Positions 28,557 to 60,382 of a stretch of DNA of 60,475 nucleotides are shown in pieces. Source of the DNA: Bacillota bacterium. Lineage in GTDB: Bacteria; Bacillota; Halanaerobiia; Halanaerobiales; DATFIM01. The translations under genes were made by a program, and so were the position numbers. The stretch spans positions 1 to 60,475 of the forward strand of contig JBNJDL010000001.1 in the NCBI GenBank assembly GCA_051744825.1. Reading direction: 5' to 3'. Every line of letters starts with the position of its first letter. The stretch's first letter is position 1. The notes below the pieces were generated by a model. That model was not told the origin of the DNA and ran no database searches. It was given only the letters and a program-made list of their open reading frames with translations.

Positions 28557-28571
28557 AGGAGGAGATTATAA

Positions 28572-28812: not shown

Positions 28813-28842
28813 ATGCCTAATTACCAATAATTACCGCGGCAC

Positions 28843-28914
28843 ATGTGAGTTTTTAAAATTGGACGAATAATTTTTGAATATATACCCTATATAATAAAGG
28901 GTGCTGCGGGGAAG
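28843..28914 (+). promoter_or_regulatory. Promoter/operator-like element, family 3 copy c1 (plus orientation)
   Basis: ATGTGAGTTTTTAAAATTGGACGAATAATTTTTGAATATATACCCTATATAATAAAGGGTGCTGCGGGGAAGA. Near-identical over about 70 nt to 49400..49473. Confidence 0.45.
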
Positions 28915-28950
28915 ATTATTCTCTCAAAACTATCAAATCAAGCTTTATAA

Positions 28951-28982
28951 AATAAAAAATCCCCCACTTTTTAAGGTGAGGG
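28951..28982 (-). terminator. Rho-independent terminator at the end of the late (lysis) operon
   Basis: Minus strand: CCCUCAC-CUUAAAAA-GUGGGGG followed by AUUUUUUAUUUU. Confidence 0.75.
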
Positions 28983-29009
28983 TGGAGGGGAACAAATTTG
29001 AGAATCACT

Positions 29010-42101: not shown

Positions 42102-42551
42102 TTAAGCTAATGTTGGTTGTCCAGTAACTTTTAATGTTAAGCTTGCACTTAATTTATCATCATGTGGAGCGCTAGGCTCAAATCCAGTTACAATAGCATC
42201 AAAATTCCAAGTTGTTGCGCCAGAGTTTGAAAAGACTAATTCATAATTCTTTTTAGCTCCGCCATCTAACTCTCCTAACATTCCAGAAGCAGAACTATGA
42301 GTAGATTCATCTGGAACATAATTAATATCAAAAGTCACTTCGCCACTTCTTAAGACTGTAACTACATGTTCTTCCCATCCGCCTTCATTTACAAAGGAAT
42401 CATGAGAAGTAACATCAGAAGTGTCAGCTGATAAACCTGGACCAGTTATATCAACAACCTCAGCGATTGTAGTATAAGTAGTTCCAGAAGTTCCAGCTTG
42501 ATCACCTAATTTTAATAATGTTCCACCAGCAGCTATTCCATTACTTGCCAA
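42102..42551 (-). CDS. Major tail protein, paralog 2
   Basis: Lies before the chaperones. Shares long blocks with 42567..43055 (VDITGPGLS.DTSD, GWEEHV.TVLRSGEVTFD.NYVP, VTGFEPS.PHDDK.SAS.TLK.TGQPTL). Confidence 0.7.
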   Translation of the reverse strand: MASNGIAAGGTLLKLGDQAGTSGTTYTTIAEVVDITGPGLSADTSDVTSHDSFVNEGGWEEHVVTVLRSGEVTFDINYVPDESTHSSASGMLGELDGGAKKNYELVFSNSGATTWNFDAIVTGFEPSAPHDDKLSASLTLKVTGQPTLA

Positions 42552-42566: not shown

Positions 42567-43055
42567 TTAATTTAAAGTAGGTTGCCCGGTTATTTTCAAT
42601 GTCACACTTGCACTTGACTTATCATCATGAGGATTTGAAGGCTCAAAACCTGTAACAAAAGCATCAAATTGCCATTGAGTATTTGATAAATCAGTAAATG
42701 TGATTTGAAATCCATTTTTAGTTCTATTATTTAACATATATAATAGTCCAGGGGCTTCACCTGAGCCAACAGTTGTGCTTCCTGAAGAATTATTTTGAGT
42801 CGTATTTGAAGGAACATAATTTAAATCAAAAGTAACTTCTCCAGACCTTAAAACTGTTGCAACATGTTCTTCCCAACCATTCTCAGTTGTAAAAGAATCA
42901 TGATTTGTAATATCAGAAGTATCAGATGAAAGTCCTGGACCAGTAATATCTACTATTTCAGCAATATCACTATAACCAGAACTAGCACCAGACCCTTCTT
43001 CAATATATTTTGCGCTTAAAATTGTTCCACCTGCAGCTAAACCTTTAGAAGCCAT
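42567..43055 (-). CDS. Major tail protein, paralog 1
   Basis: Same blocks as 42102..42551, plus a Ser/Gly/Thr-rich insertion (NNSSGSTTVGSGEAPG). Confidence 0.7.
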   Translation of the reverse strand: MASKGLAAGGTILSAKYIEEGSGASSGYSDIAEIVDITGPGLSSDTSDITNHDSFTTENGWEEHVATVLRSGEVTFDLNYVPSNTTQNNSSGSTTVGSGEAPGLLYMLNNRTKNGFQITFTDLSNTQWQFDAFVTGFEPSNPHDDKSSASVTLKITGQPTLN

Positions 43056-44153: not shown

Positions 44154-44525
44154 TTAATCACCTTCACTCATCACATTAAATACTGGTTTTTTAAGACCTA
44201 GCTTTGAAAGAGTTCCTGTTGTATCTAATAATTTAACTTGTTGTCCATATTCAGTAGAGTCTAATCCTAATCCTTTTTTATTAGTATCAAATTTCACACT
44301 TGCGTCTCCCATAGATTCTTGAGATATTCTTTTATCACTAACAGCAACTAGATGAGCAGATAGCCACCTTTCAATCTCTTTTAGTAATTCATCGCCTAAG
44401 GCAGAACTACCTAATTTATTAGTTACAATAAGATTAGCTGCTGTTATAAATGGGTCAACAGTTATTTCTGTATTTATTATTTCTTTTACCTCATCAGAAG
44501 TTACCCTATTGGACATAAGTTTCAT
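44154..44525 (-). CDS. Head-tail connector (gp6-like) candidate
   Basis: Position after the capsid genes, and the pattern LLKEIERWLSAHLVA. Confidence 0.4.
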   Translation of the reverse strand: MKLMSNRVTSDEVKEIINTEITVDPFITAANLIVTNKLGSSALGDELLKEIERWLSAHLVAVSDKRISQESMGDASVKFDTNKKGLGLDSTEYGQQVKLLDTTGTLSKLGLKKPVFNVMSEGD

Positions 44526-44928
44526 CTCCAGAATCTAACCTGATATTTATAATTTCTAAAGCCTCATCTTTTCTAACTTTCTTTTCCATGTGAGGTAGAT
44601 CATACCAATTAGTGGAAGTTTTATATTGCTCAACATATTTTTCTATATTATCTTTAGTGACATCATCAAAAAGGATTAATTCATCTTCTTCATTAGTTTC
44701 TTCGTTTGTTTCTTCATTTGTTTCTTTATTAATTTCTTCAACTTCTTCTTCAACTGATTTTTCTTCTATTTCTTCAACTTCTTTTACTTCACCTAATTTT
44801 TCAAATCTGTCAGGCCATTTTTCATAATGTTTTAAAGGAAGATTTTCAATAGTGTCTCCAGCTTCATACCTAACTCTTTTGCCATCTTCTTTTAATGAAT
44901 GTCTACCACTTTTTAACTTAACTCTCAT
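44506..44928 (-). CDS. Hypothetical acidic protein with NEET repeats
   Basis: ORF after the capsid terminator. Contains NKETNEETNEETNEE. Confidence 0.5.
   Translation of the reverse strand: MRVKLKSGRHSLKEDGKRVRYEAGDTIENLPLKHYEKWPDRFEKLGEVKEVEEIEEKSVEEEVEEINKETNEETNEETNEEDELILFDDVTKDNIEKYVEQYKTSTNWYDLPHMEKKVRKDEALEIINIRLDSGDETYVQ
44696..44731. repeat. Tandem 12-nt repeat (GTTTCTTCNTTT x3) encoding NEET repeats
   Basis: Direct reading of the sequence. Confidence 0.7.
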
Positions 44929-45020: not shown

Positions 45021-45986
45021 TTAGCTATAATAAACAATTCCTTGATTTCCATCATCATCAGATTTTACTCTTGGAGCTAAAGCAGACATAACTTTAAAGT
45101 AAACCATCATGCCGGAGCCGTGCTCCCAATCAACAGTTGTAACATCTTGACCAATACTTAAATCAACAACATCTGGAGTCATCTGAACTAATAGTCCATC
45201 AGTATCTCCTAATGAATCAGCAGTTTTAACATTATTGATTTGGTCAAGTTGCAAGATTCTACTTCTCTTAGTTTGGCCAGATCCATCAGAATAAACTATT
45301 CTTGACCAAGCGGAATTCTGCTTGCCAATATATAGATTGAATGGACCATAATATTTATTATCTTCAGCATCAGCAATCATATCTAAAACATCTAAATATG
45401 GGTCTGTGCCTGAGCCACTCCAACTTGAAATAGATCCAGTGTTAGAAGTATCAGTTAAACCATTAATAGAATTCCCATCAATATTATAACTAACACCATT
45501 AAGGATTAAGTCTTCAATTTTTTCAGCTACTTTTCTTGCAGCAGTTGCCGCTTGAGTTGTATCTATTGTAGCCCCCATTTTTCTTGAAGCTTGTAACCTT
45601 CTGATATTAATTCTAAAATCTTTATGAATTATTGGAATTGGAACACTAACTGTGGAGAATGTAACGTCATCTTCTTCACCTGGACTAACTCCAGCCATAT
45701 CAAGGTTAGCGTCACTCATATCAGATTGTTTTTCATACTGGTCTACAGTAGTTCCTAAACCACCTAAATTTCTTACAAGTCCAGCATTTCTTAAATCATC
45801 AGCAACAACAAGTCTACTTCTTGCAACATCAATTACTGTCTCATCTAACATTTTCCATTCATCTTGTCTCAAAACCCTATTAGTTTTCAAGGCGTCAATA
45901 TTCATACTATTAGCAATAAGTTTTTCAATTGCTCCGCCTTGCATATTCTCTAAGTTCTGAGAATTTGTAATTTTAGCTTCGCTCAT
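45021..45986 (-). CDS. Major capsid protein
   Basis: 321 aa, after the scaffold and decoration-like genes and followed by a strong hairpin. Assigned by position and size. Confidence 0.7.
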   Translation of the reverse strand: MSEAKITNSQNLENMQGGAIEKLIANSMNIDALKTNRVLRQDEWKMLDETVIDVARSRLVVADDLRNAGLVRNLGGLGTTVDQYEKQSDMSDANLDMAGVSPGEEDDVTFSTVSVPIPIIHKDFRINIRRLQASRKMGATIDTTQAATAARKVAEKIEDLILNGVSYNIDGNSINGLTDTSNTGSISSWSGSGTDPYLDVLDMIADAEDNKYYGPFNLYIGKQNSAWSRIVYSDGSGQTKRSRILQLDQINNVKTADSLGDTDGLLVQMTPDVVDLSIGQDVTTVDWEHGSGMMVYFKVMSALAPRVKSDDDGNQGIVYYS

Positions 45987-45987
45987 A

Positions 45988-46419
45988 TTATATCACCTCT
46001 ATTTTAATTCTATCATTACTACCAGTGGAACCAGTAGTTGCTTCAATAACTTGTCCAACTATACTTTCACCATCAGCGCCAGTTGTTGTGTAAGCTTGTA
46101 GATAGCCGGAGCCATCAGAAGCTAACATATCCCCAACACTATAAGATGTAGCACCAGAAGTTAATAGTGCATTAATTTCGTCGCCAGGTTTACAGAATAA
46201 AAATTTAACTCTGTCTCCATCAGCATAATCAGTGTCAATTCCTTCACCCATATAATCTTCATTATCGGCGAATATTTTAGCAGCATTTCCATTAGCACTA
46301 GAATGAGCTTTAACAGTGCCATTTGAAGTTCTTTCTAACAACATCCCAGGAGTTACTGCACCAGAAGCTTCAGCTTCCTTGGATATTGGACTTCCTTTTA
46401 ATAAAATCTTATTAGCCAT
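45988..46419 (-). CDS. Head decoration-like / DUF2190-like protein
   Basis: 143 aa, Gly/Ala/Ser-rich, located between scaffold and capsid. Confidence 0.35.
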   Translation of the reverse strand: MANKILLKGSPISKEAEASGAVTPGMLLERTSNGTVKAHSSANGNAAKIFADNEDYMGEGIDTDYADGDRVKFLFCKPGDEINALLTSGATSYSVGDMLASDGSGYLQAYTTTGADGESIVGQVIEATTGSTGSNDRIKIEVI

Positions 46420-47822
46420 TATTGATCATCTCCTTTATCTTTTTTGTTGAAGAATAAACCAGGACTCTTATATTCTTTTTCTTCATTTGTTTTATGGCCT
46501 GGTCTGCCAGAATAATCAGCAGCTTCTTCATTTATTTTAGCTAATTTTTTAAGACTATTTAAAGACATTCCTTCTAAGTCTTCTTCCTCAAAGTCAAGCG
46601 CTTCATTTTCAATAACCTCTTTTTTAGTATCAGCTATTTCTTCTTCTAACTCTTTTTCGGCCTGTTTTTTATTTTCAATCATTTCTTCTAATTCTTCTTC
46701 AGTAATATCATAATTTTCTTTTAACAAGTCTTTGAATTCCACTGTTTCTTCTTCATCTCCTTCATCATTAGTTTTAGGATTTTCATCCTCTTCATCTTCT
46801 TCAGAATTTGAGCAATTAATTGATAAGCCTTCTTCGATGGTTTTTAATTGATTCTCATTAAAACCTTTCAAAGTTTCTTCATCAAATTCATTGCATTCAT
46901 ATTCTGAAATCTTTGTAATTAATTCATCTTTCATATTTTCACCTCTTGTTTTAAAATTATTTTTAATAAACTCTTTTAACTCATCTAACTTTTGAGCTAT
47001 TATATTTTGACTCTCATCATTAGCTTTAGGATTTTCACCTTCTTCATCTTCATTATTATTAGCTTTATAATGATTGACTTTCATAGTTCCACACCCATCT
47101 TCTAAACTACAAGCACCTTTTTGAGAAGGTAGTAAAGCTAAATGGTCTGGCCTAATATTTCTTTGAACGCCATTATACTTAATTCCTTCATGAGTTCCTT
47201 CTACCATTTCAACATCACTAAAATAAGCAGTTGAAACATCCATTGGCTCATGATTTTTAAGTTTATTTAGGGCTTCTTTTATGTCATCATTATTTTCAGC
47301 TAATTTTTCAGCTTTATTTATTTCTACCCAGATTTCACCTTTTAGTTTATTATCTTCCCAATTTACATTGTAGAATCTACCTATGACTTCAGAATCAATA
47401 ACTTCTTTATGTCTGGAACTAACATTTTTACCCATTCTTTCCGGGTGCATTACTGGAACAGGAACATCATTCCAAACATCAATATAAGTATTCAATTCTT
47501 CTTTGGGAGCAAATTGCCCATTTAAAACTTGCTCTCTTACAGCAACAACCGGGACTACTAAATAATCAATCCCATCTTTTGTAACTTCTTTGACTTTATC
47601 ACTATTTAAGCTATGAATTATAATTGTATTTTGATTCATATTTTCAATCACCCCATTTGCAGTTTTAATAGCTTTTGCTTCACATTTTTCTTGTTCACCT
47701 CCACCTTGAAGACATTCTTCTAAAATAGAGTTTGCAACACTTTTCCATCTTTCTTTTTGCTTTCGGTTTAAACCTTTTTTAAATTTATCAACATCAGAAA
47801 CTTCCCATGGCAATTTTACCAC
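46419..47822 (-). CDS. Scaffolding or prohead-maturation protein (DUF2213-like N-domain, acidic repeated C-half)
   Basis: Lies before the capsid. N-domain block VPVMHPE...EVIGRFYNV...RPDHLALLP. Two nucleotide repeats of about 39 nt (46762..46800 and 47014..47052) encode EDEE.ENPK.NDE. Confidence 0.5.
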   Translation of the reverse strand: MVKLPWEVSDVDKFKKGLNRKQKERWKSVANSILEECLQGGGEQEKCEAKAIKTANGVIENMNQNTIIIHSLNSDKVKEVTKDGIDYLVVPVVAVREQVLNGQFAPKEELNTYIDVWNDVPVPVMHPERMGKNVSSRHKEVIDSEVIGRFYNVNWEDNKLKGEIWVEINKAEKLAENNDDIKEALNKLKNHEPMDVSTAYFSDVEMVEGTHEGIKYNGVQRNIRPDHLALLPSQKGACSLEDGCGTMKVNHYKANNNEDEEGENPKANDESQNIIAQKLDELKEFIKNNFKTRGENMKDELITKISEYECNEFDEETLKGFNENQLKTIEEGLSINCSNSEEDEEDENPKTNDEGDEEETVEFKDLLKENYDITEEELEEMIENKKQAEKELEEEIADTKKEVIENEALDFEEEDLEGMSLNSLKKLAKINEEAADYSGRPGHKTNEEKEYKSPGLFFNKKDKGDDQ

Positions 47823-47829: not shown

Positions 47830-48453
47830 TTAGCTACCATATTTTTCTTCATAAAGGAACATTCTAAAATATACATCAACTGCATCATCGGCAGAACTTA
47901 TATTTAAGATTTTTATATGATAATAAGAATCATTTTTTGTTACTATTTCTTCATTAGGATTTTGACTTAATTCCCCTGATGTAACTTGATTCCCAGCTGA
48001 ATTTCCTTTAATTTCAAAACTATGCCATGAACTACCGGAAGTGCCTGTAAATGAAACTCCGCTAGTCCTTAATTCAGATTTTGCCGGATTGTTAATATTG
48101 TCATTTAAATTATTAATATCTAAAAGTTCACTACCAGAATTTGTTATATTAGAACCACTAAAACTATTTTTTATTTCAACTCTTAAACTAGCCCCTAATC
48201 CATTTAATCCGATATTTTTTATATGATTATATTTATCAACCCCTGTTTTTAATAACAAACTTTTAGAACTTCCTGCTGTTAAACTTGGAATTTTAAATTC
48301 TGTTTGATAGCCGATTCCTCTATGGATATATGAATGATCAGTGTTGATATTATTCATGGCTTCTGTTATTTTATCAGCTTTTAGTCTGACAGGATTGCCC
48401 TCGTCATCAAAACTATATAAATAAAATTCTCCTCTTCCATCATCATTAGGCAT
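47830..48453 (-). CDS. Hypothetical Ser/Thr/Asn/Gly-rich beta protein (virion module)
   Basis: First ORF after terminator 48473..48508. No motif. Confidence 0.5.
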   Translation of the reverse strand: MPNDDGRGEFYLYSFDDEGNPVRLKADKITEAMNNINTDHSYIHRGIGYQTEFKIPSLTAGSSKSLLLKTGVDKYNHIKNIGLNGLGASLRVEIKNSFSGSNITNSGSELLDINNLNDNINNPAKSELRTSGVSFTGTSGSSWHSFEIKGNSAGNQVTSGELSQNPNEEIVTKNDSYYHIKILNISSADDAVDVYFRMFLYEEKYGS

Positions 48454-48472
48454 TTATATCATCCCTTTCACT

Positions 48473-48508
48473 AAAAAAGACCTACCACTTTATTTATTGT
48501 AGTAGGCC
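48473..48508 (-). terminator. Rho-independent terminator closing the cargo cassette
   Basis: Minus strand: GGCCUACUAC-AAUAAAUAAA-GUGGUAGGUC followed by UUUUUU. Confidence 0.8.
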
Positions 48509-48527
48509 TTCAAGAGGCTCAGCTATA

Positions 48528-48683
48528 TTAACTTGGATTTACAACAAATTCTTTTTCAAAACTTCCGCCTGATGTCACATAATTCATTTCGCCACATCTT
48601 GGACATTTTATTTCTATGTTACCTCTAAGCTTTTTAAAATCAAACAATCTTTTATTACAATTTTCACACCTAAATTCAATCAT
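48528..48683 (-). CDS. Com-like zinc-finger protein (51 aa)
   Basis: MIEFRCENCNKRLFDFKKLRGNIEIKCPRCGEMNY parallels the phage Mu Com pattern (C.NCNK.LF....IEI.CPRC). Its start overlaps the cytidylyltransferase stop. Confidence 0.55.
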   Translation of the reverse strand: MIEFRCENCNKRLFDFKKLRGNIEIKCPRCGEMNYVTSGGSFEKEFVVNPS

Positions 48684-49374
48684 TGGTTTCCCTCTCCTTT
48701 AACAAAACTTCAGCTATTTTAAAATCTTTTATATTATCTACATCATGATCTGAATATTTATCTACTTTTAATGCTAAACAATCTTCTAACATATTATAAT
48801 ATTTTATATCTCTTTTAGTTTTATAAATCATAATTGTGAAATTGGTCCAATAAGTTTTGTCGTATTTATAAAAGTGACTTTGGTATTTATCTAATGGAAC
48901 AATCTTATTATTTTTAACTTTAAAAGCATGAGTATAAAGAGAATGATATAATTCAGAAACAGTTATTAATTTATTAGCTGTATTATTTTTAATCATTTCC
49001 AAACCTCTATTAATATCTTGCCATTTTACTAATGGTGAGGTTGGTGCGATAACTGTGTGATAGCACGGTGTATAGCCTTCTTCTTTGTTAAGGTTATACA
49101 ATACATTCTCAACTACTTTATCTACTGTAACAGCCCCATTAGCGAGCTCTGCGGGCCTATCCATCACTTCATAGCCGTAGTTTTCGCCGATTTCTTTTAT
49201 TTCATCATCTTCAGTGCTGATTATTATTCTATCTATATTAGATTTTTTCATCGCCTCAGCTACCCAAATCATCATAGGTTTGCCATTAAGCATTTTTATA
49301 TTCTTTCTTTTTAGCCTTTGGCTTCCGCCTCTTGCTGGTATTATTCCTAAAGTTTCGCTGTTATTTTTGACCAT
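48676..49374 (-). CDS. Nonulosonic-acid-type cytidylyltransferase (NeuA/PseF/LegF family)
   Basis: N-terminal GIIPARGGSQRLKRKNI signature. About 230 aa. Confidence 0.75.
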   Translation of the reverse strand: MVKNNSETLGIIPARGGSQRLKRKNIKMLNGKPMMIWVAEAMKKSNIDRIIISTEDDEIKEIGENYGYEVMDRPAELANGAVTVDKVVENVLYNLNKEEGYTPCYHTVIAPTSPLVKWQDINRGLEMIKNNTANKLITVSELYHSLYTHAFKVKNNKIVPLDKYQSHFYKYDKTYWTNFTIMIYKTKRDIKYYNMLEDCLALKVDKYSDHDVDNIKDFKIAEVLLKERETND

Positions 49375-49399
49375 CTAAAGTGGTTCCCTCCTTAAAAAA

Positions 49400-49473
49400 A
49401 TGTGAGTTTTTAATTTTGGACGAATAATTTTTGATTCTATAGGCTATATAATAAAGGGGCCTGCGGGGAAGAG
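49400..49473 (+). promoter_or_regulatory. Promoter/operator-like element, family 3 copy c2 (plus orientation, antisense to flanking genes)
   Basis: ATGTGAGTTTTTAATTTTGGACGAATAATTTTTGATTCTATAGGCTATATAATAAAGGGGCCTGCGGGGAAGAG. Confidence 0.45.
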
Positions 49474-49477
49474 TGTA

Positions 49478-50263
49478 TTATTTTTTTATCCCGCTAAGGT
49501 TAACTTTACCTAAAAATTGACTGCTAAATACTAAAAATATAATTATCATTGGAATCGAAGCGAATACAGATCCAGCCATTATTAATTGTATTCTTTGGTC
49601 AAATTGTTGTTGTAAAGAAGCAACTGCTAAAGGCAAAGTATTCATCTCAGAAGTCCTTATCATAATTAAATGCCAAAAATAATCATTATAACTTTTTATA
49701 AAAGTAAATATTGCTAACGCTGTGATTGATGATTTAGAAAGCGGTATTATTATTTTATAAAATATCTTAAATTCACTTGCCCCATCAATTCTAGCAGCGT
49801 CTATAACTTCTGAAGGAATTGTTTTTATTGATTGCCTCATTAAAAATACTCCAAACGGCCAAGCTAATGTTGGAAGTATTAAACCTAAATAATTATTAAT
49901 CATTCCAAAGTTTTTCATCATCTGAAATAAAGGAACTATTATCGCTTGTTTAGGAATTGCCATTGTTCCAATCATTATTATTAATATTATATTTGCTCCC
50001 GGAATTTTTAATTTACTTAAACTATAACCTGCCATAGTTGAAAATATACACATTAAAATTGTTGTGACTACAGCTATAAATATTGAATTAAAATTCCATC
50101 TTAAAAAATTATCTAAACCCAGGAGCTCTTTGTAATTTTCTAAAGTAAATTTATTTGGTATTAATTTTAAATCAGCTTTTTCAGGTTGAACTGAAGTTGC
50201 TAACATCCAAATCATAGGGGATATAAAAACTAATGCTATTAATATTATAAACAGTTTTTTCAT
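49478..50263 (-). CDS. ABC transporter permease (CUT1/MalG-like)
   Basis: Six hydrophobic segments and an EAA loop (IDAARIDGASEFKIFYKIIIPL). The start is set at ATG 50263 after AAGGAGGGGAAT. Confidence 0.8.
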   Translation of the reverse strand: MKKLFIILIALVFISPMIWMLATSVQPEKADLKLIPNKFTLENYKELLGLDNFLRWNFNSIFIAVVTTILMCIFSTMAGYSLSKLKIPGANIILIIMIGTMAIPKQAIIVPLFQMMKNFGMINNYLGLILPTLAWPFGVFLMRQSIKTIPSEVIDAARIDGASEFKIFYKIIIPLSKSSITALAIFTFIKSYNDYFWHLIMIRTSEMNTLPLAVASLQQQFDQRIQLIMAGSVFASIPMIIIFLVFSSQFLGKVNLSGIKK

Positions 50264-50273
50264 ATTCCCCTCC

Positions 50274-51125
50274 TTAATATTCAAAATCTGATTTTAAAAA
50301 TCTATATTGGAATACAGTTAATATAGTTACTATAACTAACAATATTGATCCCATAGTTGAGGCTAATCCATATTCATTAAATTGGAATACTGTTTTATAT
50401 AATTGAAATGCAATTGTTGATGTTTTATAATATGGGCCTCCTCCAGTTAATAACTGAATTATTACAAATACATTAAAAGCCCCAATAGTCCTAACTATCA
50501 TTAAATATAGTATAGTAGGTTTTATTAGTGGAATTGTTATATAATAAATTCTTTGCAGCCAATTAATCCCATCAATTTCAGCCGCTTCATAATACTCTTC
50601 AGGAATATTATTTATAGCTCCTGTTAAAAGTATAATTGGCTGGCCAACTGCTATATAAATTAAAACTAATATTAAGCTGTAAATCGCTATATTAGAGTTT
50701 CCTAAAAAATCTATATTCAAGCCGAATACATTATTGATTAATCCATTATAAGAATATATCATTTTCCATGTCAAGAATATTGAAACTCCACTTGCTATAT
50801 GAGGCAAATAAAATAAACTTAAATATAGATATTGTTTTTTGAGTTCAGCTATAATTAATGATATTGCTAAACTAAATATTAAAACTAAAGGAGTTGAAAT
50901 AAATACAAATAATAAAGTATTTTTTATTGATTGTATAAAAATTGAATCAGTAAACAAATTTATATAATTATTAAATCCTACAAACTCAAATGTTGTTAAA
51001 TTGTATATAAAGAAACTATTATATATTGTCTTAAATATAGGATACAACAAAAACATAGAATATATTATAAGGGATGGGAGAAGCAGTAAATAACCTGCTC
51101 CCCACCTTTTTATTTTATTTTTCAT
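50274..51125 (-). CDS. ABC transporter permease (CUT1/MalF-like)
   Basis: Multi-TM protein with an EAA loop (YEAAEIDGINWLQRIYYITIPL). Confidence 0.8.
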   Translation of the reverse strand: MKNKIKRWGAGYLLLLPSLIIYSMFLLYPIFKTIYNSFFIYNLTTFEFVGFNNYINLFTDSIFIQSIKNTLLFVFISTPLVLIFSLAISLIIAELKKQYLYLSLFYLPHIASGVSIFLTWKMIYSYNGLINNVFGLNIDFLGNSNIAIYSLILVLIYIAVGQPIILLTGAINNIPEEYYEAAEIDGINWLQRIYYITIPLIKPTILYLMIVRTIGAFNVFVIIQLLTGGGPYYKTSTIAFQLYKTVFQFNEYGLASTMGSILLVIVTILTVFQYRFLKSDFEY

Positions 51126-52339
51126 TTTAAAATCTTATTAGCTTTATTTTGAAAATCTTCTAAAGCCTCAGCTGGCTCTTTCATATCAGCAAATACTGCT
51201 TGCATTTCAGGATAGAATCTAGCTCTTAATTGACCGTATTCAGCTAAATCGCTTCCTTTATAAGTTGTATATTCTAAAAAGTCTTGCAGTATCCACATTT
51301 CTTTTAAATCATAAGCAGGAACAGTATTTTTCCAAGCTGAGAATCTACTTAAATATCTTGTAGCTTCTTTATTATAATTATTTATAAAGAATCTAACAAA
51401 TTTCTTAGCATATTCTATTTTTTCTTTATCGCCGTTATCAAATATTCCAAAAGCGTTAAAAGTTGCTACATGTTTTGGCTTAAGTCCTTCAGGATGTGGA
51501 GAAGCCATCATTATTGAATCAACTTTTTCAATATTATCTTCAGATAAGAAGTATGATCCACCATAAATAATTGCTCCTACATTTCCTTCTAAATAATCTT
51601 GAATTACTTCAGTAGCTTTTACATTGCCTGGATTTCTATAAGTTAAACCCTCTTTTTGTAATTCTTTAAGATATTTTAACCCTTCAACAGCTTCAGGTTG
51701 ATTTATAACGACCTCTCCATCAACAATATATTCTGGACCATAATTTTGTAGGAATAATCTTATCCTATCATCGCCCTGCTCATTATTAATTCCAAATCCA
51801 AATGGAACTTTCACATAAGGTTTTATAGTTGTTAAGAATTCTTTAAATTCTTCTATAGTCCAATGTCTATCTTCAGGAATATCATATCCAGCTTTCTCAG
51901 CTATACTTTTATTAATAGTTATCGCACTTATATAGCTGGAAGTAGGATAAACATAAAGCTTATCATCTATCTCACAAAATTCTTTTACTGATTTATATAT
52001 ATTATTATTCTCTGTTTCAGTTAACTCAAACGGAACTAACTTTCCTTGAGCTGCATAAGATAACAATCTTGAATCTCCATCATAAATAATATCAGGAGTT
52101 GTATTAGAAGCTATCGCCATATTTACTTTTTCTGGGCCACCATTATATGGAATTGTTTGAAAGTTAATTTCTACCTCTGGATATTTATCCTCAAAAGCTT
52201 CTATAACCTCTTGCTCAAACCAACCGTTTTCAACACCATCTTTGTTCCATCTGGGATAGCCCCAATAGTCTAATTCTACAGCTCCGACAGATAATGTCAT
52301 AACAAAAACCAACAATAAAGCAATTAATAATTTTTTCAT
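51122..52339 (-). CDS. ABC transporter extracellular solute-binding protein (family 1, sugar type)
   Basis: N-terminal signal MKKLLIALLLVFVMTLSVGA with no Cys. About 400 aa with a typical SBP_bac_1 layout. Confidence 0.7.
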   Translation of the reverse strand: MKKLLIALLLVFVMTLSVGAVELDYWGYPRWNKDGVENGWFEQEVIEAFEDKYPEVEINFQTIPYNGGPEKVNMAIASNTTPDIIYDGDSRLLSYAAQGKLVPFELTETENNNIYKSVKEFCEIDDKLYVYPTSSYISAITINKSIAEKAGYDIPEDRHWTIEEFKEFLTTIKPYVKVPFGFGINNEQGDDRIRLFLQNYGPEYIVDGEVVINQPEAVEGLKYLKELQKEGLTYRNPGNVKATEVIQDYLEGNVGAIIYGGSYFLSEDNIEKVDSIMMASPHPEGLKPKHVATFNAFGIFDNGDKEKIEYAKKFVRFFINNYNKEATRYLSRFSAWKNTVPAYDLKEMWILQDFLEYTTYKGSDLAEYGQLRARFYPEMQAVFADMKEPAEALEDFQNKANKILK

Positions 52340-52365
52340 TATATAACCTCCAAGGGATTCTTTTT

Positions 52366-54108
52366 TTATTCTACATAACTATATTCATCTAAAATCATAT
52401 CTCTACAATTTTCTAATTCTTTTTTAAAAGCTCTTCTATATTCATTATATTTTCTTAATATTTTTTCTTGTTTATTCTTTTCGCTCAAATACATTCTTTT
52501 AGTGGCTTCATTGTATTCCATTATTTCCGGGATTAAAACTCGCTCAGTAAAATATTTAACATTATCAAATTGGTCAATCTTATTTTCTAATTCGCTGAGT
52601 CTGGTATTATCCCAATTGCCGTTATCATCTAAATTAGATATTAAGCCTCTAACTTCAAGAATAATTTTATGAGCAATATCTATTGCTTGATTAATTTCTT
52701 GTAAAGTCTTAGCCATTTTATCTTGAGCATCTTCTTTATAATCTTCAAATCTAGGTTTTTTGTTTTTATATAGTTCATCTAATATTTCTTTTGCATTAAT
52801 CTCACCTTCAAAAGAATCGATTACATCTTTTAATTTTTTATTCTCTGCACCTTTAAAATTACAACCGCCTTCAGTTGCGTCTATAACTTTACAATCAAAC
52901 TGCTCAAATAAACTTTCAAAATATGCAATCATAGTTTTATATTTCTTAGTAGTTTTAACTTTACCATCCCAGCCATCAATCTCAACAGTATCATAATCAT
53001 CAAATTCTTTGCCATCATAGCCTGACTTTTCTGAGTGATATTTATCATCAGTAAATGCCAAATCCTGCCCAACAAAAACTATTGGATCACAACCTAATTT
53101 ATAAGCTAAATAAGCTGAAGAGTGAGCAACAGTTCCGCCAGTCCTTATTGTTTCATATTCGCCTTTTAAATCTTCAATCCAACCGCTGAAATTTCTTTTC
53201 ATTGTAAAGAATAATTGTGGACCTTTCCAATTCCTATTAATCATATACTGATTGCCTAACTCAGAAGCTAAAATAGTGTCATCTATTTTATCAACAATAT
53301 CTTCAAAATGAATTTCCCAGTTTTCAACCTTGCCATCAATCGAAACAACAATATCCGGCTCAATTCCATGATTTAATAGTGCTTTAGTAGAACTCCCAGC
53401 TGAAATGATAATAGCTTTATCCTTAGCTTGCTTTAAGTCCTCTATATTTTTGTCAAGCGAAGGACCATTACTGACTACAATAGCTGGTATACCGCTTAAA
53501 TCATCAAAGAAGTCATCAGCTTTAGGACTATCTAATATATTACTAATATTCCCTATTATATTATTCCGCCATTTTCTAGAATGTCTTATATTAGTTATTA
53601 AATTAATCCTTTTATATTGTAATCCATTTTGTATCTCATCAATTAAGTTTTTGCTCATGTCAGGATAATTATTTTTATAGTAACTATTGTCAACTATTTC
53701 AGGAACTCTATTTAATTGTATATCTACAAATTCATTTACAGCTTGAAATACTGAAGATAATTGTTGGAATATAATTATTAGATTGTCTCTTTTAAATGTA
53801 TCACTAAAATCAAACTCATGGAGCAAAGCATAAAATACTGACATATTAGGCTCAATTATAATAATCTTCTCGCAGCGACCAATATTATTTACAGTTCCCT
53901 GCAGCCCAACAAATATTATCTGACTTCTATTATTATAATCTACGTCTACTATTTGATTAAAATTCTTGTATAAAAATTCTTCACCAGTAACTAAGTTTTT
54001 AACTATATTGCCTTCAATCTCAAATTGATGTTCCATTTTATTTAATAAAGTTTTTATGCTTGGATAATTTTTATTTAATGCATTTTTATTTTTATTGTAG
54101 TAGTTCAA
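52366..54108 (-). CDS. Maf-type (motility accessory factor, DUF115 / MptE-like) putative nonulosonic-acid protein glycosyltransferase
   Basis: IPAIVVSNGPSLDKN (GPSL motif) and VIDATEGG. N-terminus NKNALNKNYPSI resembles Maf N-termini. 580 aa. Confidence 0.65.
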   Translation of the reverse strand: MNYYNKNKNALNKNYPSIKTLLNKMEHQFEIEGNIVKNLVTGEEFLYKNFNQIVDVDYNNRSQIIFVGLQGTVNNIGRCEKIIIIEPNMSVFYALLHEFDFSDTFKRDNLIIIFQQLSSVFQAVNEFVDIQLNRVPEIVDNSYYKNNYPDMSKNLIDEIQNGLQYKRINLITNIRHSRKWRNNIIGNISNILDSPKADDFFDDLSGIPAIVVSNGPSLDKNIEDLKQAKDKAIIISAGSSTKALLNHGIEPDIVVSIDGKVENWEIHFEDIVDKIDDTILASELGNQYMINRNWKGPQLFFTMKRNFSGWIEDLKGEYETIRTGGTVAHSSAYLAYKLGCDPIVFVGQDLAFTDDKYHSEKSGYDGKEFDDYDTVEIDGWDGKVKTTKKYKTMIAYFESLFEQFDCKVIDATEGGCNFKGAENKKLKDVIDSFEGEINAKEILDELYKNKKPRFEDYKEDAQDKMAKTLQEINQAIDIAHKIILEVRGLISNLDDNGNWDNTRLSELENKIDQFDNVKYFTERVLIPEIMEYNEATKRMYLSEKNKQEKILRKYNEYRRAFKKELENCRDMILDEYSYVE

Positions 54109-54125: not shown

Positions 54126-54335
54126 TTATTTTTCTTCAAAAGTAATTCCATTATCATCAATATATTCTTCAGTATGATTAACTTCACCTGTTAATATTTC
54201 ATGCGGTATCCCTTTTGGATAAGCTTTGCAATGATAATATTCTACACTTTCGTCATCATTTGGCTGTTTTACCCATTTCAAATGTTTACATATATTCCCT
54301 TTTAAGCAAGTAGCATCTTCTGAAATATATATCAT
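54126..54335 (-). CDS. Small hypothetical protein downstream of the MuF fusion
   Basis: Its start overlaps the stop of 54332..56062. Contains Cys and His residues (C..C...H...HC). Confidence 0.5.
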   Translation of the reverse strand: MIYISEDATCLKGNICKHLKWVKQPNDDESVEYYHCKAYPKGIPHEILTGEVNHTEEYIDDNGITFEEK

Positions 54336-56062
54336 TGTAATCCCTCTCTTATTAAGCCCATAATTTTATTTGCTAATGGTTTATCTGTATTTAATTCATC
54401 ATTTACAAAACTTTCAGCTACAAATTCTTTGTTATTAGTCCTAGCATACCCAGTGAGCTGATTATACATTTCCCTACTTGATAATTTAGAATATTTTTGA
54501 TAAGCTTCTTCAACAATATCATTTATTTTAGCTAAATTATTATAATGATAAGCATGACCGAATTCATGTGTTAATGTGTAATCCATACCATCTTTAACTA
54601 AACTGCTACCAAATTCAACTTTATTAGGATTTATAAAATAATCTGGATTAACAGTTACTGAATTATTTTGCGGGAAATATTGTCCAGCAGCTCCAGCATC
54701 ATCTCCAAATTTACCAATAAAACTCATATCATCAAAATTAGGTTTATTTGGCATTGTATTTTGAAGTTTTTTATCAAAATCCATTTTTCTTCTTTTAACA
54801 ATTTTTTCTAAAGTATCACCAGTTGCGCCTCTATCTTTATAATATTGTCTTATAGTTTTACCATCGAATAATGTTTCCCTCAATTCTTCTTCGGCTTCAT
54901 CAACCGCTTTCTGCCAATTCTTTAATTTTTGAGAATACATATCTGTGAAATTATCAATACTATTTGCTGTTTTTGGATATTTTTTACATAATTCATCAAA
55001 TCTTTTAGTAATTTCATTAAAAGCATTCATGTCCATATTATCTACTACTTCATCAGCCATATCTATATTTATATCATATTCTTTTTTAAAATAATCATCT
55101 GCTTGCTTTATATTATTAAAATCACCAATTGTCCCAGCAGCTCCATCTTTAACCCTACCGCCTGGCTTCATCTTCTCGCCATCTTTTTCAACAACAGGCA
55201 ACCAAGCACACCTACAATTTGGATGAACAGGAATAACTCCCCTTGCTCCATCAATGCTATAAGTTTGCCCTTCTAAACCTTGACAAATTCCGCAGACTCT
55301 TCCATCACCGGCTGTTGATAATTCAACTTCAGCTGTAACCTCTTTTAATCCAGCTTGTTGATAAGTATTTAAAGTGGCTTCAGCGTGAGCGTTAACGACT
55401 TCAGTTCTTGCCATAGTTCTTGCTCTAGTTATTCCTATCTTATCTACTCTTTTATTTAACATGGATGCTATCTGTCTTGGATTCTTGCCTTGGGCAAAAC
55501 CTTTAGATAACTCTCTGCCTATATCTCTATTCATTGCTTCAGTTATTCCATCAAGCGCTTTATAATTGCGGCTATATAATAATTCAACAGAATCCTTATG
55601 AACAGGCATTGCAAATATTGAACTGCCGCCTCCTGATGGAGTATTAATTCCAGTCTGATTAAGATAATTTCTGGCACTCTCATTTGCTTTTTGATAAGAT
55701 GATCTAATATATTTCTGCTGCCAATCTGAATTATCTAATATTTCTAATTCATTTCGTTCAACATTTCTAAGCCAACTCATAAATTCATCTAACTTTTTAG
55801 CATCTGTATCAAACTTAAATTGTTGATAAGGAACATCATAATTAGCTTTTAAGTCTTTATTCATAACTCTATTGGTTAATCCAAATATATCTAAATCTAT
55901 AATGCCTTCCCTAATTCTACCTTTTAATTTGCGAAATCTTTTATAACAATCAGCTGAATATCTTCTTCTAATAGTTTTAGTCTGAGTGGGGTCAATTTTA
56001 AATTGTGCATTAGTTGTTATATTATTATTTACATGTGTTCTATTTCCACATATTTTGCACAT
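54332..56062 (-). CDS. Head morphogenesis protein (Mu F / SPP1 gp7 family) fused to a C-terminal HExxH domain
   Basis: The MuF core is ITRARTMARTEVVNAHAEAT...CGICQGL...HPNCRC. The C-terminal roughly 280 aa carries THEFGHAYH and a downstream EFVAESF. Confidence 0.7.
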   Translation of the reverse strand: MCKICGNRTHVNNNITTNAQFKIDPTQTKTIRRRYSADCYKRFRKLKGRIREGIIDLDIFGLTNRVMNKDLKANYDVPYQQFKFDTDAKKLDEFMSWLRNVERNELEILDNSDWQQKYIRSSYQKANESARNYLNQTGINTPSGGGSSIFAMPVHKDSVELLYSRNYKALDGITEAMNRDIGRELSKGFAQGKNPRQIASMLNKRVDKIGITRARTMARTEVVNAHAEATLNTYQQAGLKEVTAEVELSTAGDGRVCGICQGLEGQTYSIDGARGVIPVHPNCRCAWLPVVEKDGEKMKPGGRVKDGAAGTIGDFNNIKQADDYFKKEYDINIDMADEVVDNMDMNAFNEITKRFDELCKKYPKTANSIDNFTDMYSQKLKNWQKAVDEAEEELRETLFDGKTIRQYYKDRGATGDTLEKIVKRRKMDFDKKLQNTMPNKPNFDDMSFIGKFGDDAGAAGQYFPQNNSVTVNPDYFINPNKVEFGSSLVKDGMDYTLTHEFGHAYHYNNLAKINDIVEEAYQKYSKLSSREMYNQLTGYARTNNKEFVAESFVNDELNTDKPLANKIMGLIREGLQ

Positions 56063-56411: not shown

Positions 56412-57773
56412 CTAATTTAGATTATTAAACTGTTCCTGGACTTCATCATCTTCTTCATCTAACGGCTCTTCTTCTAAATCATTAATTGGAAGATTAAGCT
56501 CATCTCTTAATATCTTCTCAATATCAACAATAGAGCCAGCAGCTCCTTTTGCGTATTCATTAGCAGCTTTAGCTTTAGATAAGTGCATTTCAGCTTTTTC
56601 TTTATCATCAAGTTCAATAAGTTCATGCCAATTAATTTTATATTCAACTTTAGGAAGTGCGCCATATTTAATTAATCTATCAATAAATGGCCTTAAGATT
56701 GTAGGCTCAGCAAAATTAGTCTGCCTTGTTTTTATGATACTTGACCAGTTTTTAGCGTCCTGAGAAGATGATAGTTCTCCTCTTTCTGAGCCGAGTAATA
56801 TTCTTTTAGGAATACCAGTAGTTGCTGAAATTAAACTCATTATAACCTCAAAAGTAGGTTTCGGATTGGCTACACTCACACCTAAGTCTTTTAATTCTAC
56901 ACCTTGAGTTCTTACATATCTTCTTAATCCATTAAAGTATTCATCTAATTCATCTTGTAAATCTTCCATATCTTCAGTTCCTGGATCAAACTCTTCACTA
57001 ATATCAGCATGTAATCCTTTTCTAGCATTCTGCCAAAACATCTCAGGACTACCACCAGCTACTTTATATAAATCATCTAACAAATTATAAACTCTTTTTA
57101 AATCTGGCCTACCATAAATCTCATCTTCTTCTAAATTATCAGCTATATGGATAACTCTTGAATGATGGACTTTTGTAGTTTTAGACTTATCTGAATCTAA
57201 AGTATTATTCCCAATCTCAATTGAATAATATTTAGGTAGTCTAAATCTTGGATTAAATGGATCATCTTCAAAAGTATCTATATCAACTCTTCCTTGAGAA
57301 TATGGTGCTAAAAATATTATATCTTCCGGGCCGCTTAATTTAGGCATTTCATCTGACAATTTACCTTTTCCTTTTGCGCCTATTAATAACACACCAAATT
57401 CGCCAATTCTTGAAAGTTTATCAGCTCTCTTAAAATAATGTGAGATTCTTAGTCTATCTTCTAATTTATCCCAAGCTTTTTCAAACTCAGTATTCCTTTC
57501 TTCATCATCGGTTTCATGTATATCTGGCATATCTTTCCAGGTTTCATCTGCTGGAGCATCTATAATTCTGCCAGCAATATCTTGCCTTTGATATTTAGCC
57601 ATATAATTATTAAAAGCTATTTTATCTTTATAACCGAATGTATCATAATAATCTCTATTACCTTCAAATGACTGACCGAGATAACCGGCTAAAGTTTTTC
57701 TAGCAAGCAATGTTGTGTTCTGTATTAGTTTATTGAATTGAGATTTATTCATTTTAATTTCTTTATCGCTCAA
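56412..57773 (-). CDS. Portal protein
   Basis: 453 aa, directly after the large terminase. Acidic C-terminus. TTG start after AAGGTGGTG. Confidence 0.75.
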   Translation of the reverse strand: MSDKEIKMNKSQFNKLIQNTTLLARKTLAGYLGQSFEGNRDYYDTFGYKDKIAFNNYMAKYQRQDIAGRIIDAPADETWKDMPDIHETDDEERNTEFEKAWDKLEDRLRISHYFKRADKLSRIGEFGVLLIGAKGKGKLSDEMPKLSGPEDIIFLAPYSQGRVDIDTFEDDPFNPRFRLPKYYSIEIGNNTLDSDKSKTTKVHHSRVIHIADNLEEDEIYGRPDLKRVYNLLDDLYKVAGGSPEMFWQNARKGLHADISEEFDPGTEDMEDLQDELDEYFNGLRRYVRTQGVELKDLGVSVANPKPTFEVIMSLISATTGIPKRILLGSERGELSSSQDAKNWSSIIKTRQTNFAEPTILRPFIDRLIKYGALPKVEYKINWHELIELDDKEKAEMHLSKAKAANEYAKGAAGSIVDIEKILRDELNLPINDLEEEPLDEEDDEVQEQFNNLN

Positions 57774-60221: not shown

Positions 60222-60297
60222 TGGTTGCGGCAGGCAGATTCGAACTGCCAGCTTTGGGATATGAACCCAACGAGTTAAACCGTTACTCTATGCCGCT
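60222..60297 (-). tRNA. tRNA-Met (CAU), initiator-like
   Basis: Hand-folded 76-nt cloverleaf with encoded CCA. Anticodon loop UUCAUAU. GGG:CCC closes the anticodon stem. A11:U24 pair. Position 1:72 is an A-A mismatch. Confidence 0.8.
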
Positions 60298-60305
60298 AAA
60301 TTTTA

Positions 60306-60382
60306 TGGAGCTGGGAATGAGATTTGAACTCATAACCTGCTATTTACAAAACAGCTGCTCTTCCAAATTGAGCTATCCCAGC
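60306..60382 (-). tRNA. tRNA-Thr (UGU)
   Basis: Hand-folded 77-nt cloverleaf. Acceptor GCUGGGA/UCCCAGC. Anticodon loop UUUGUAA. T-loop UUCAAAU. CCA is encoded. Confidence 0.8.

Follow-up and report, generated by a model that had tools for sequence, protein, structure and literature searches.

The window analyzed in this study is a 60,475-nt stretch of DNA that makes up an entire contig, filed as part of a Bacillota metagenome-assembled genome, and it is a siphovirus-type phage. Six minus-strand genes at positions 48528..54108 stand between the gene for a MuF-type minor head protein and the scaffold gene of this phage, and they encode a full-length Maf-type transferase, a solute-binding protein (SBP), two CUT1 permeases, a CTP_transf_3 cytidylyltransferase (CT), and a Com-like zinc ribbon. 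We lean toward reading this cassette as a phage pathway that scavenges, activates, and transfers a nine-carbon (or close) 2-keto-3-deoxy sugar acid, with virion proteins as the likeliest acceptor. By inference, the scavenge, activate, and transfer route itself is well supported.

Organization of the cassette

All six family assignments are at or above the curated thresholds in a Pfam profile search, and the open reading frames (ORFs) lie on the minus strand where a sequence-only reading of the window had placed them (Table 1). The two permease genes overlap by 11 nt. The start of the Com-like ORF overlaps the stop codon of the CT gene by 8 nt, at ATGATTGA, and from this arrangement the Com-like gene is predicted to be translationally coupled to the CT gene. 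Apart from the spacer between the importer block and the CT gene, the cassette has no sizeable gap; within this spacer are an imperfect GCGGG...CCCGC hairpin and, ahead of the ATG, a good ribosome-binding site (AAGGAGGG). The G+C content at third codon positions (GC3) is 0.16-0.25 for the cassette genes and 0.12-0.25 for the rest of the phage, and the cassette is therefore neither a chimeric assembly nor a recent graft. Recent capture or misassembly was ruled out by GC3 together with the presence of phage genes on both flanks.

The cassette interrupts the conserved order of portal, MuF, scaffold, decoration, and major capsid protein genes, in agreement with the earlier view that it is inserted in the head-assembly operon. 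The strong terminator that had been proposed to close it is also borne out by its stem and folding energy (Table 1), and a consensus terminator scanner misses it only because its 10-nt loop exceeds the scanner limit of 8 nt. Only ~20 nt separate this terminator from the head-module gene that follows, at a point where the late structural operon would be expected to continue. A promoter could not be identified at 48454..48527; phage promoters may be noncanonical, since the phage has its own sigma-factor-like genes. The Com-like gene is the last one before the terminator and no mom-like gene comes after it, unlike in Mu, where Com is encoded just upstream of the DNA modification gene mom and activates its translation. 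Counterparts of the Com-like, 207-aa, and 69-aa ORFs were sought in the other viral cassettes described below, and none were found.

The window has no ABC ATPase (no MsmK homologue and no LSGGQ motif), no homologue of NeuB, PseB, PseC, Epimerase_2, or PglD, and no nan gene, flagellar gene, or DUF8042 homologue, and genes for a flippase, a polymerase, or a lipid carrier are absent from the cassette. An importer without an ATPase and a lack of sugar biosynthesis genes, both of which the sequence-only reading had asserted, are thus confirmed in the window.

In the pathway that we propose, the SBP would be exported to the periplasm of a diderm, Halanaerobiales-type host during infection and would pass the free sugar acid to the two phage permeases, which would be powered by an MsmK-type orphan ATPase of the host. 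The phage CT would then couple the imported sugar to CMP, and the Maf-type enzyme would move the sugar from the CMP donor to Ser/Thr of a protein. The module would serve late-expressed virion glycosylation, by which the phage coats itself with a sugar that the host need not make. The transport substrate, the enzyme activities, the use of a host ATPase, and the acceptor are deduced in this scheme from family membership and context. To judge from the relatives of the importer and the CT, the sugar is most likely of the N-acetylneuraminic acid (Neu5Ac)/legionaminic acid (Leg) type, i.e., of D-glycero-D-galacto configuration.

Maf-type transferase

The 580-aa protein is assigned to the Maf/DUF115 family by profile, by alignment, and by its predicted fold, as had been supposed. 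It scores 165.1 bits against the PF01973 cutoff of 34.6, and its GPSL motif is found at residues 215-218. The protein retains all 16 columns that are invariant in an alignment of 42 family sequences, among them G215-P-S-L218, D258, G347-Q-D349, and E413-G-G415. The match to the NCBIfam PseD model (NF050051; E = 4e-36) reaches 124.7 bits, below the cutoff of 670, so that the protein is related to PseD but is not a member of that family. The AlphaFold2 model has a predicted local distance difference test score (pLDDT) of 88.5 and a predicted template modeling score of 0.86. In a Foldseek search with this model, the top match, and the sole Protein Data Bank (PDB) match below 1e-3, is the Maf structure 5MU5 over the whole length (E = 1.1e-15, template modeling scores of 0.55/0.51), followed by MptE HPPK (MptE kinase) and then by weak matches to GT29 sialyltransferases. 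The protein is accordingly a predicted CMP-nonulosonate transferase in its sequence and modeled fold.

Among 5.8 billion proteins, the best matches other than the protein itself are 620-660 aa in length and 33-41% identical, and those with names come from Halanaerobium, Selenihalanaerobacter, and Frackibacter. Mafs from Halanaerobiales-type flagellin islands share 38-41% identity with the phage Maf over 84-91% of its length. Three such loci (L001, L004, and L006) are flagellin glycosylation islands with the order flagellin-FlaG-FliD-(FliS)-Maf-DUF8042, after which come legionaminic- or pseudaminic-type biosynthesis genes and a CTP_transf_3 gene. Compared with the island Mafs, the phage protein lacks ~35 residues of the N-terminal domain plus smaller pieces in the alignment. 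No match to PF20157 (Maf_flag10_N) was found in it at E ≤ 0.01; most of its closest homologues carry this domain.

Maf-2-type enzymes cannot bind flagellin alone and need the small adaptor GlfM, which is encoded just downstream and is mostly noninterchangeable between species, according to a preprint of the Viollier laboratory (bioRxiv 10.1101/2023.12.03.569772). In all three islands, a DUF8042 gene directly follows the Maf gene (L001, 11933-12514; L004, 11932-12519; L006, 3950-4561), in the slot where Shewanella and Kurthia encode GlfM. The DUF8042 proteins are 193-203 aa in length, i.e., twice the length of GlfM, and have no NCBIfam match; from their position, they may play the role of GlfM.

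Importer

The earlier description of an SBP with two CUT1 permeases is upheld by the profiles, and the EAA loops of the permeases can be read as EAAEIDG and DAARIDG. The best named permease models (UgpA/UgpE, GlcT/GlcU, and MalF/MalG) are all CUT1 types. Permease 1 is 41-47% identical and permease 2 is 42-47% identical to a cellular clade that is linked to lyase and DUF386 genes.

Only a dozen relatives of the SBP were recovered in a word-index search, none of them above 34% identity. The nearest solved structures are 9RY2/9RSI (E = 1e-38, residues 21-405), and a chain of the 9RY2 series matches protein P0129 at E = 7.5e-251 (835 bits). P0129 (locus L007), a lipoprotein of streptococcal type, has NanE and an MsmK-type ATPase encoded next to it. 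In locus L010, the SBP relative adjoins a lyase that passes the NCBIfam N-acetylneuraminate lyase cutoff, a YhcH/DUF386 anomerase-like gene, and a GntR regulator; L017 has NanA, and L019 has a NanA-like gene and DUF386. When reference genomes were scanned with a profile from a six-sequence SBP alignment, eight loci were found. Every one has the order SBP-permease-permease without an ATPase, and seven of the eight have a DHDPS-family lyase and/or DUF386 within 8 kb. No paper describing the 9RY2-series structures, or the CT match 9FTB mentioned below, was found in a literature search.

The ST6 "SatEFG" (Streptococcus pneumoniae "SatABC") and ST7 sialic acid ABC systems are generally energized by MsmK, an orphan ATPase, and the ST6 type occurs also in Spirochaetes (PMC8461474). 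The phage importer resembles ST6 SatEFG in having an SBP_bac_1 protein with two CUT1 permeases and, as is usual for that type, no ATPase gene of its own. By its nearest solved relative and the genomic company of its relatives, it appears to fall with the ST6/SatEFG sialic acid importer type, which agrees with the sialic acid importer proposed from the sequence, and sialic acid is its predicted substrate. It differs from SatEFG in that the SBP is only ~27% identical, is not linked to nan catabolic genes, and has a signal peptide without a lipobox cysteine, which most of its relatives carry. Such a signal peptide is compatible with a periplasmic location in a diderm, and the host is provisionally assigned to one such group, the Halanaerobiales.

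GenBank matches of the permease and SBP that are filed as phage sequences were not counted as phage importers, since they are unannotated fragment contigs and most likely host DNA. Such records include OR846992.1, OR848323.1, OR846785.1, and others ("Listeria phage LM 4-11-1", "LM 4-14-1"). Ordinary bacterial CUT1 permease and SBP genes are present on many short contigs of this kind, which are filed as phages without annotation and can mislead surveys of phage auxiliary genes.

Cytidylyltransferase

The CT was taken in the sequence-only reading as a NeuA/PseF-type enzyme rather than KdsB, and the scores support this assignment. It reaches 112.9 bits with the PseF model (TIGR03584), which is below the cutoff of 205.7, and at most 57 bits with KdsB models. 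Among structures in the PDB, it matches NeuA (9FTB) at E = 1e-22 and the Vibrio cholerae CMP-Neu5Ac synthetase (6IFD) at E = 4e-17 over the full length; KdsB structures match at E = 1.7e-11 or weaker and only at the N terminus. KdsB was ruled out on these scores. PseF is unlikely because the closest relatives of the CT lie in Epimerase_2 and NeuB (Neu/Leg-type) clusters. Neither sequence-based ground for refutation named in the sequence-only reading, a transferase outside the Maf/DUF115 family or a CT in KdsB or another family, was borne out.

No full-length relative above 40% identity was found among 1.84 billion representatives, the few higher values being partial-length matches. The closest relatives (38-40% identity) lie in NeuB and Epimerase_2 clusters: P0137 has the context Polysacc_synt_2-CT-NeuB-Epimerase_2, P0142 adjoins NeuB, and P0140 is the CT of a Leg-type cluster whose contig carries a PseB-PseC-CT-PseG cluster elsewhere. 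The phage CT is 29-34% identical to the CTs of the Leg-type islands, with the L004 copy the closest (34%), and it matches the copy of the pseudaminic acid (Pse)-type L006 island over 52 residues only. It keeps the PARGGS, KN, STED, TSP, and C-terminal D-x-D (D-V-D) motifs. On sequence, the enzyme groups with the Neu/Leg-type CTs as a divergent member and is a predicted CMP-sugar synthetase. Neu5Ac and legionaminic acid share their stereochemistry (PMC5420450), and a Neu/Leg-type CT is for this reason in agreement with a Neu5Ac-type importer.

The CT linked to an importer in the IMG/VR contig L025 (12304-13044) deviates from its relatives at the same two places as the window CT, which are residues 19 and ~165-180 in the latter. 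In both enzymes, the K of GGSK is replaced and the (R)RQ-D...NG motif conserved in their closest relatives is missing. These common deviations may mark a different sugar specificity.

Recurrence in other viral contigs

Further viral sets were obtained from profile-based scans of IMG/VR, and their loci were annotated with PHROGs, Pfam, and local HMMER (Table 1). An importer, a CT, and an MptE-like transferase occur together in three IMG/VR contigs (L052, L076, and L043). In L052, all five functions lie at the MuF/capsid junction, as they do in the window, and the portal and capsid proteins of L052 belong to different families. The MuF protein of L043 matches that of L052 at E = 6e-76, which indicates that related phages carry the set at different positions. 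These viral loci have no ABC ATPase. The binding proteins of the viral cassettes all have signal sequences and the MptE-like proteins all keep GPSL; the MptE-like proteins other than that of the window keep the catalytic core only.

The permeases of the viral sets are 25-47% identical to one another, which is no closer than they are to those of cells, with L028/L029 as the only close pair, and the G+C content of the sets spans 29 to 56%. Because the viral sets are no more alike than they are to cellular genes, the combination appears to have been assembled several times. No other argument for a joint action of uptake, activation, and transfer is as strong as such repeated independent assembly, and recurrence in unrelated contigs thereby strengthens the earlier idea of a functional coupling.

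At least 58 IMG/VR contigs (L030-L087) carry relatives of the CT, mostly beside NeuB, PseB-like, and PseC/DegT genes; some of them are jumbo-size or giant-virus contigs. In several of these (L046, L060, and L063-L065), an MptE-like gene of ~325 aa lies inside a PseC-PseB-(MptE-like)-NeuB-CT cluster. No published account of the purpose of viral clusters of CT with NeuB, PseB, and PseC was found. The viral nonulosonate clusters of phages and giant viruses (L012, L046, L047, L060, and L062-L065) have CTP_transf_3 in common with the window, often together with a short MptE-like protein, but they make the sugar, whereas the window imports it and encodes a Maf of full length in place of a core-only MptE-like protein. 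L012 is probably a second Halanaerobiales phage, with a biosynthetic instead of an import version of the module. A B12/radical-SAM gene of L012 (1558-2925) matches one in the flagellin glycosylation island of Halanaerobium congolense at E = 4e-157. BFVD contains about a dozen automatically annotated phage MptE-like proteins, all of them core-only. Among GenBank phages, no Maf homologue and only two weak CT matches were found.

No matches were obtained when the cassette (blastn) and the Maf (tblastn) were searched against 50,697 GenBank phage records, or in single-protein pattern scans of IMG/VR with the Maf and with the portal. No GenBank phage protein is more than 46% identical to the large terminase.

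Haloarcula tailed virus 3 (HATV-3; L024, NC_062757) has, at 4082-9718, the order portal-MuF-scaffold (DUF2213-like)-decoration-major capsid protein, as in the window, and an HNH endonuclease gene is inserted at its MuF/scaffold junction. This slot seems to be tolerant of insertion across very distant tailed viruses.

Acceptor of the sugar and alternative explanations

Virion proteins (capsid, decoration, tail tube, or the 207-aa protein) are our leading candidates, a choice that we regard as tentative. In every lineage examined, the set lies inside the packaging/head module, in different slots (L026-L029 have no recognized head genes), and the decoration, capsid, and tail-tube proteins of the window consist of 16-25% Ser+Thr. 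A virulent-type gene set, the lack of a gene in the adaptor position, the shortened N-terminal domain of the Maf, and the core-only MptE-like proteins elsewhere also speak for a virion acceptor. Extended beyond the window, the proposal would be that tailed phages of several unrelated lineages coat their virions with sialic-acid-like sugars, made by themselves (NeuB-type clusters) or imported by means of a host ATPase, and attached by retargeted Maf/MptE-like enzymes; this generalization is more speculative.

Several observations weigh against the proposed pathway or its virion acceptor. L043, L052, and L076 have importers that are no more than generic CUT1 systems, with 25-33% identity, and the SBP of the window is only 27-34% identical to any relative. 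In two of the reference-genome loci, the lyase is ambiguous within the DHDPS family and is not a clear NanA. The CT has K19Q (in GGSK) and lacks the sugar-site (R)RQ-D...NG motif, in place of which HFY-KY...TNFT is found; given these deviations, the enzyme may be impaired, or its sugar may be one other than Neu5Ac, Leg, or Pse. The Maf retains the entire C-terminal helical domain of the flagellin Mafs. The Maf CbMaf does not glycosylate noncognate flagellins, and the known action of Mafs is restricted to flagellin (PMC11339370); the paper on the Tannerella transferase likewise has no precedent for a Maf with a nonflagellin acceptor. A module that is just one part of a late operon would not be expected to end in a strong terminator directly upstream of the scaffold and capsid genes, and the placement in the head module could reflect a permissive insertion site. 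Finally, the phage may have a lysogeny module, as its genome may be incomplete (no terminal repeat was detected in the contig).

Host flagellin as the acceptor of the same pathway is rather unlikely, yet it is the strongest of the alternatives. The filament of the infected cell would be redecorated with the scavenged sugar, which could mask a flagellar receptor, with superinfection exclusion or less loss of progeny on debris, or could alter motility. Flagellar glycans appear as phage-binding determinants in one account (PMC7099621). The phage Maf is a full-length homologue (41% identity, C-terminal helical domain included) of enzymes encoded beside flagellin, FlaG, and FliD genes, and Mafs are known only as acceptor-specific flagellin glycosyltransferases. 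A DUF8042 or GlfM-like protein of the host could serve the phage Maf in trans, but the poor interchangeability of GlfM between species counts against this, and the phage brings none. The phage Maf also has the N-terminal deletion described above, and the MptE-like proteins of the other viral sets, which are placed in head modules of phages whose G+C contents differ widely, are core-only. A virulent-looking replication module, with neither integrase nor repressor found, would leave little time for new flagellin to enter filaments. Moreover, many hosts already make CMP-Leg or CMP-Pse, for which an importer would be unnecessary.

It is improbable that the genes do not form one pathway, i.e., that the importer serves nutrient uptake and the Maf and CT are a separate, possibly decaying, capture from a flagellar island, or that the region is misassembled. 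The 103-nt spacer separates importer and CT, the CT has lost motifs that its relatives conserve, and the nearest relatives differ, being Halanaerobiales for the Maf and Clostridia or Spirochaetes-type loci for the importer. On the other hand, the three functions are contiguous and co-oriented in L052, L076, and L043, importer and CT occur together in L025-L029, and these sets have independent origins. Every ORF of the cassette is undisrupted, and neighboring ORFs overlap or follow closely on one another. The Maf retains its full set of invariant residues, the importer is not accompanied by catabolic genes, and neither GC3 nor the flanking phage genes suggest a graft.

Modification of host lipopolysaccharide (LPS), S-layer, or capsule, with a seroconversion-like block on adsorption of further phages, is more improbable still. 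Bacteria use scavenged sialic acid in this way, and phage enzymes that alter the nonulosonic acids of Acinetobacter capsules are among those reported in PMC12053666 and PMC6586298; the IMG/VR contigs with CT and NeuB/PseB/PseC clusters would fit such a role. Nevertheless, MptE-like/Maf enzymes are without demonstrated activity on glycan acceptors, the cassette lacks a flippase, a polymerase, and a lipid-carrier gene, and the gene set of the phage is of a virulent type.

[quoted passage not shown] With this precedent, with viral cassettes that all lie beside packaging genes, and with a Com-type zinc ribbon that could act as a regulator as in Mu com/mom, the sugar acid might be placed on a modified base of the phage DNA against restriction, but we give this very little credence, since no signature of a C5-methyltransferase, 5mYOX/TET, dCMP/dUMP hydroxymethylase, or DNA kinase was found in the window, its transferase is a Maf homologue and not a GT-B DNA glycosyltransferase, and the Com-like ORF does not recur in other cassettes.

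Comparison with known systems

Scavenging followed by surface sialylation is known from Haemophilus influenzae, in which sialic acid uptake is followed by the CMP-Neu5Ac synthetase SiaB and then by lipooligosaccharide (LOS) sialyltransferases; sialic acid transporters are reviewed in PMC8461474. The logic of the phage set is the same, i.e., import of a sugar not made by the cell, activation with CTP, and transfer to a surface structure, but the steps are encoded in one compact viral operon, the importer is a CUT1/ST6-like ABC system and not a TRAP transporter, and the transferase is of the Maf type and presumably acts on protein, not LOS.

The bacterial flagellin islands with Maf (Campylobacter, Aeromonas, Shewanella, Clostridium, and Geobacillus, and the Halanaerobium loci L001, L004, and L006) have the three-domain Maf and CTP_transf_3 in common with the phage. 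The phage differs in having no flagellar genes, no sugar biosynthesis genes, and no gene in the DUF8042/GlfM position; it has an ABC importer instead of biosynthesis, a shortened N-terminal domain of the Maf, and a location in the head operon.

To our knowledge, mycobacteriophages (Che8-type) are the only established precedent for glycosylated virions of tailed phages. There, phage-encoded transferases put sugars on capsid proteins, as is proposed for the window phage. In contrast to the window, these are ordinary glycosyltransferases that use host nucleotide sugars, with no importer, CMP-sugar synthetase, or Maf, and their genes lie near the genome end rather than inside the head operon. Glycosylation of mycobacteriophage capsids is mentioned in PMC11256854, which cites Freeman et al. 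2023 for it. Phage DNA hypermodification also uses phage transferases, sometimes with a cytidylyltransferase, and one product carries Kdo (bioRxiv 10.1101/2023.12.21.572611); these systems center on C5-methyltransferase, 5mYOX, and GT-B DNA glycosyltransferases, none of which were found in the window.

Full-text searches gave no description of a phage-encoded Maf, of phage particles decorated with nonulosonate, or of such a cassette. The sequence-only reading knew of no complete set of this kind in a phage structural operon, and this agrees with the literature, but the cassette is not a one-off, as comparable sets are present in several unrelated IMG/VR phage contigs. The parts come from known families. 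What is new is the combination of an importer without an ATPase, a CMP-sugar synthetase, and a Maf in one unit, in phage head operons, and its recurrence in unrelated uncultured phages, and there is a substantial chance that it reveals a new type of virion modification. If the proposal is correct, phages carry a self-contained route to sialic-acid-like sugars on proteins that is independent of sugar synthesis by the host, and virion glycosylation, so far shown for mycobacteriophages, would also involve another chemistry and phages from the environment, with consequences for how stable the particles are, how they adsorb, and how hosts or immune systems recognize them. Virions would then have a new class of posttranslational modification, and for the first time a virus would be seen to encode an uptake system for a building block of its own particle. 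A virus-encoded, binding-protein-dependent importer that relies on a host ATPase is an unusual auxiliary function. Maf/MptE-like enzymes would also be retargetable away from flagellin, which is of interest for glycoengineering; CbMaf has already been explored for this purpose (PMC11339370). The recurrence provides a testable gene set and a search rule, namely, MptE-like, CTP_transf_3, and CUT1 importer genes within 10 kb of portal, MuF, or major capsid protein genes.

Features of the window and of related viral loci

The window has a G+C content of 29%, and nearly all of its genes are on the minus strand. Read from the right end, the gene order is two tRNAs, small and large terminase, portal, MuF, the cassette block, the 207-aa protein, the DUF2213 scaffold/protease, decoration protein, major capsid protein, connectors, two paralogous tail-tube genes, chaperones, tape measure, and tail fiber genes. 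The left half of the contig encodes a DNA polymerase, a primase, a UvsX-like recombinase, a single-stranded DNA-binding protein, a ribonucleotide reductase, two sigma-factor-like proteins, a radical-SAM protein, and nucleotide kinases. Neither an integrase nor a repressor was found among the ORFs tested, and the phage looks virulent because it has its own DNA polymerase, primase, ribonucleotide reductase, and sigma factors and no detected integrase.

TABLE 1 Features in and around the cassette of the window, followed by related viral loci (coordinates of the latter refer to their own contigs). S+T, Ser+Thr content; P1 and P2, permeases 1 and 2; TerL, large terminase; MCP, major capsid protein.
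Feature	Position	Strand	Evidence or gene order
Portal	56412..57773		Right-end packaging/head module
MuF-type minor head protein, upstream flank of cassette	54332..56062	-	Phage_Mu_F (Pfam), E 1.1e-13
69-aa Cys/His-containing ORF between MuF and Maf	54126..54335	-	Ends 17 nt before Maf start; no Pfam or NCBIfam match
Maf-type (MptE-like/DUF115) transferase, 580 aa, three domains	52366..54108	-	TTG start; PF01973, E 1.7e-48
SBP, ST6/SatEFG-like type	51122..52339	-	SBP_bac_1, E 1.9e-25, 91 bits vs 26
CUT1 permease 1 (UgpA/MalF-like)	50274..51125	-	BPD_transp_1, E 3.7e-12, 47 bits vs 26.4; UgpA, 1e-30
CUT1 permease 2 (UgpE/GlcU/MalG-like)	49478..50284	-	BPD_transp_1, E 2.7e-15, 57 bits vs 26.4; GlcU, 8e-35; UgpE, 1.5e-32
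Spacer between importer block and CT gene	49375..49477	-	103 nt
CT, CMP-(non)ulosonate synthetase type	48676..49374	-	CTP_transf_3, E 5e-27, 95.5 bits vs 22.6
Com-like zinc ribbon, 51 aa	48528..48683	-	Zn_ribbon_Com, E 3.5e-7, 30 bits vs cutoff of 22.9
Intrinsic terminator closing cassette	48473..48508	-	13-bp stem, 10-nt loop, T6; centroid energy -17.5 kcal/mol, z = -2.6
207-aa Ser/Thr/Asn-rich protein, candidate acceptor or head accessory	47830..48453	-	First gene past terminator; phrog_5335, E 1.1e-8; S+T 18%
DUF2213 scaffold/prohead protease-like protein, downstream flank	46419..47822	-	PF09979, E 1.3e-6; phrog_760 and head maturation protease PHROGs
Head decoration protein, candidate acceptor	45988..46419	-	phrog_766, E 4.8e-14; S+T 18%
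MCP, candidate acceptor	45021..45986	-	phrog_771, phrog_264 major head protein; S+T 16%
Two tail-tube paralogues, candidate acceptors	42567..43055 and 42102..42551	-	Major tail protein PHROGs; S+T 25% and 23%
L052 (IMGVR_UViG_3300044799_000158), GC 54%	4804-10155		TerL-HNH-portal-MuF-SBP-P1-P2-CT-MptE-like-(245 aa)-MCP
L043, GC 55%	2-3306		P2-CT-MptE-like upstream of portal and MuF
L076, GC 47%	2612-10241		SBP-P1-P2-...-CT-MptE-like directly upstream of portal-MuF fusion
L025, GC 32%			TerL...SBP-P1-P2...CT-portal
L026-L029, GC 33-38%			SBP-P1-P2-CT; no recognized head genes
L031/L032, GC 56%			CT (38% identical to window CT) between portal and tail-tube gene like that of the window
L012 (IMGVR_UViG_3300024259_000061), GC 32%	8241-12393		MCP-151 aa-MptE-like (349 aa)-CT-NeuB

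The tail-tube paralogues are arranged in tandem (162 and 149 aa, mutual E = 2e-53), and the upstream one has an additional Ser/Thr/Asn-rich insertion. L032 has a homologue of the window tail-tube gene (E = 1e-19) near its own CT gene. The 207-aa protein has no homologue but itself among the 5.8 billion proteins, and its single-sequence AlphaFold2 model (pLDDT 40) is unusable. Between the capsid and connector genes, 44506..44928 encodes a very acidic 140-aa protein with an NEETNEETNEE repeat and no PHROG match.

The tRNA-Met (CAT) and tRNA-Thr (TGT) genes are located at 60222..60382, at the contig end upstream of the terminase genes. The sigma-factor-like genes (phrog_351) at 6328..7092 and 12685..13185 suggest phage-directed promoter specificity for middle or late genes. 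A sign flip of both GC skew and AT skew (+0.30 and +0.19) occurs in a single stretch, 28001..29000, which contains the sole sizeable plus-strand ORF (28266..28556) and may be a divergent regulatory region or a replication origin.

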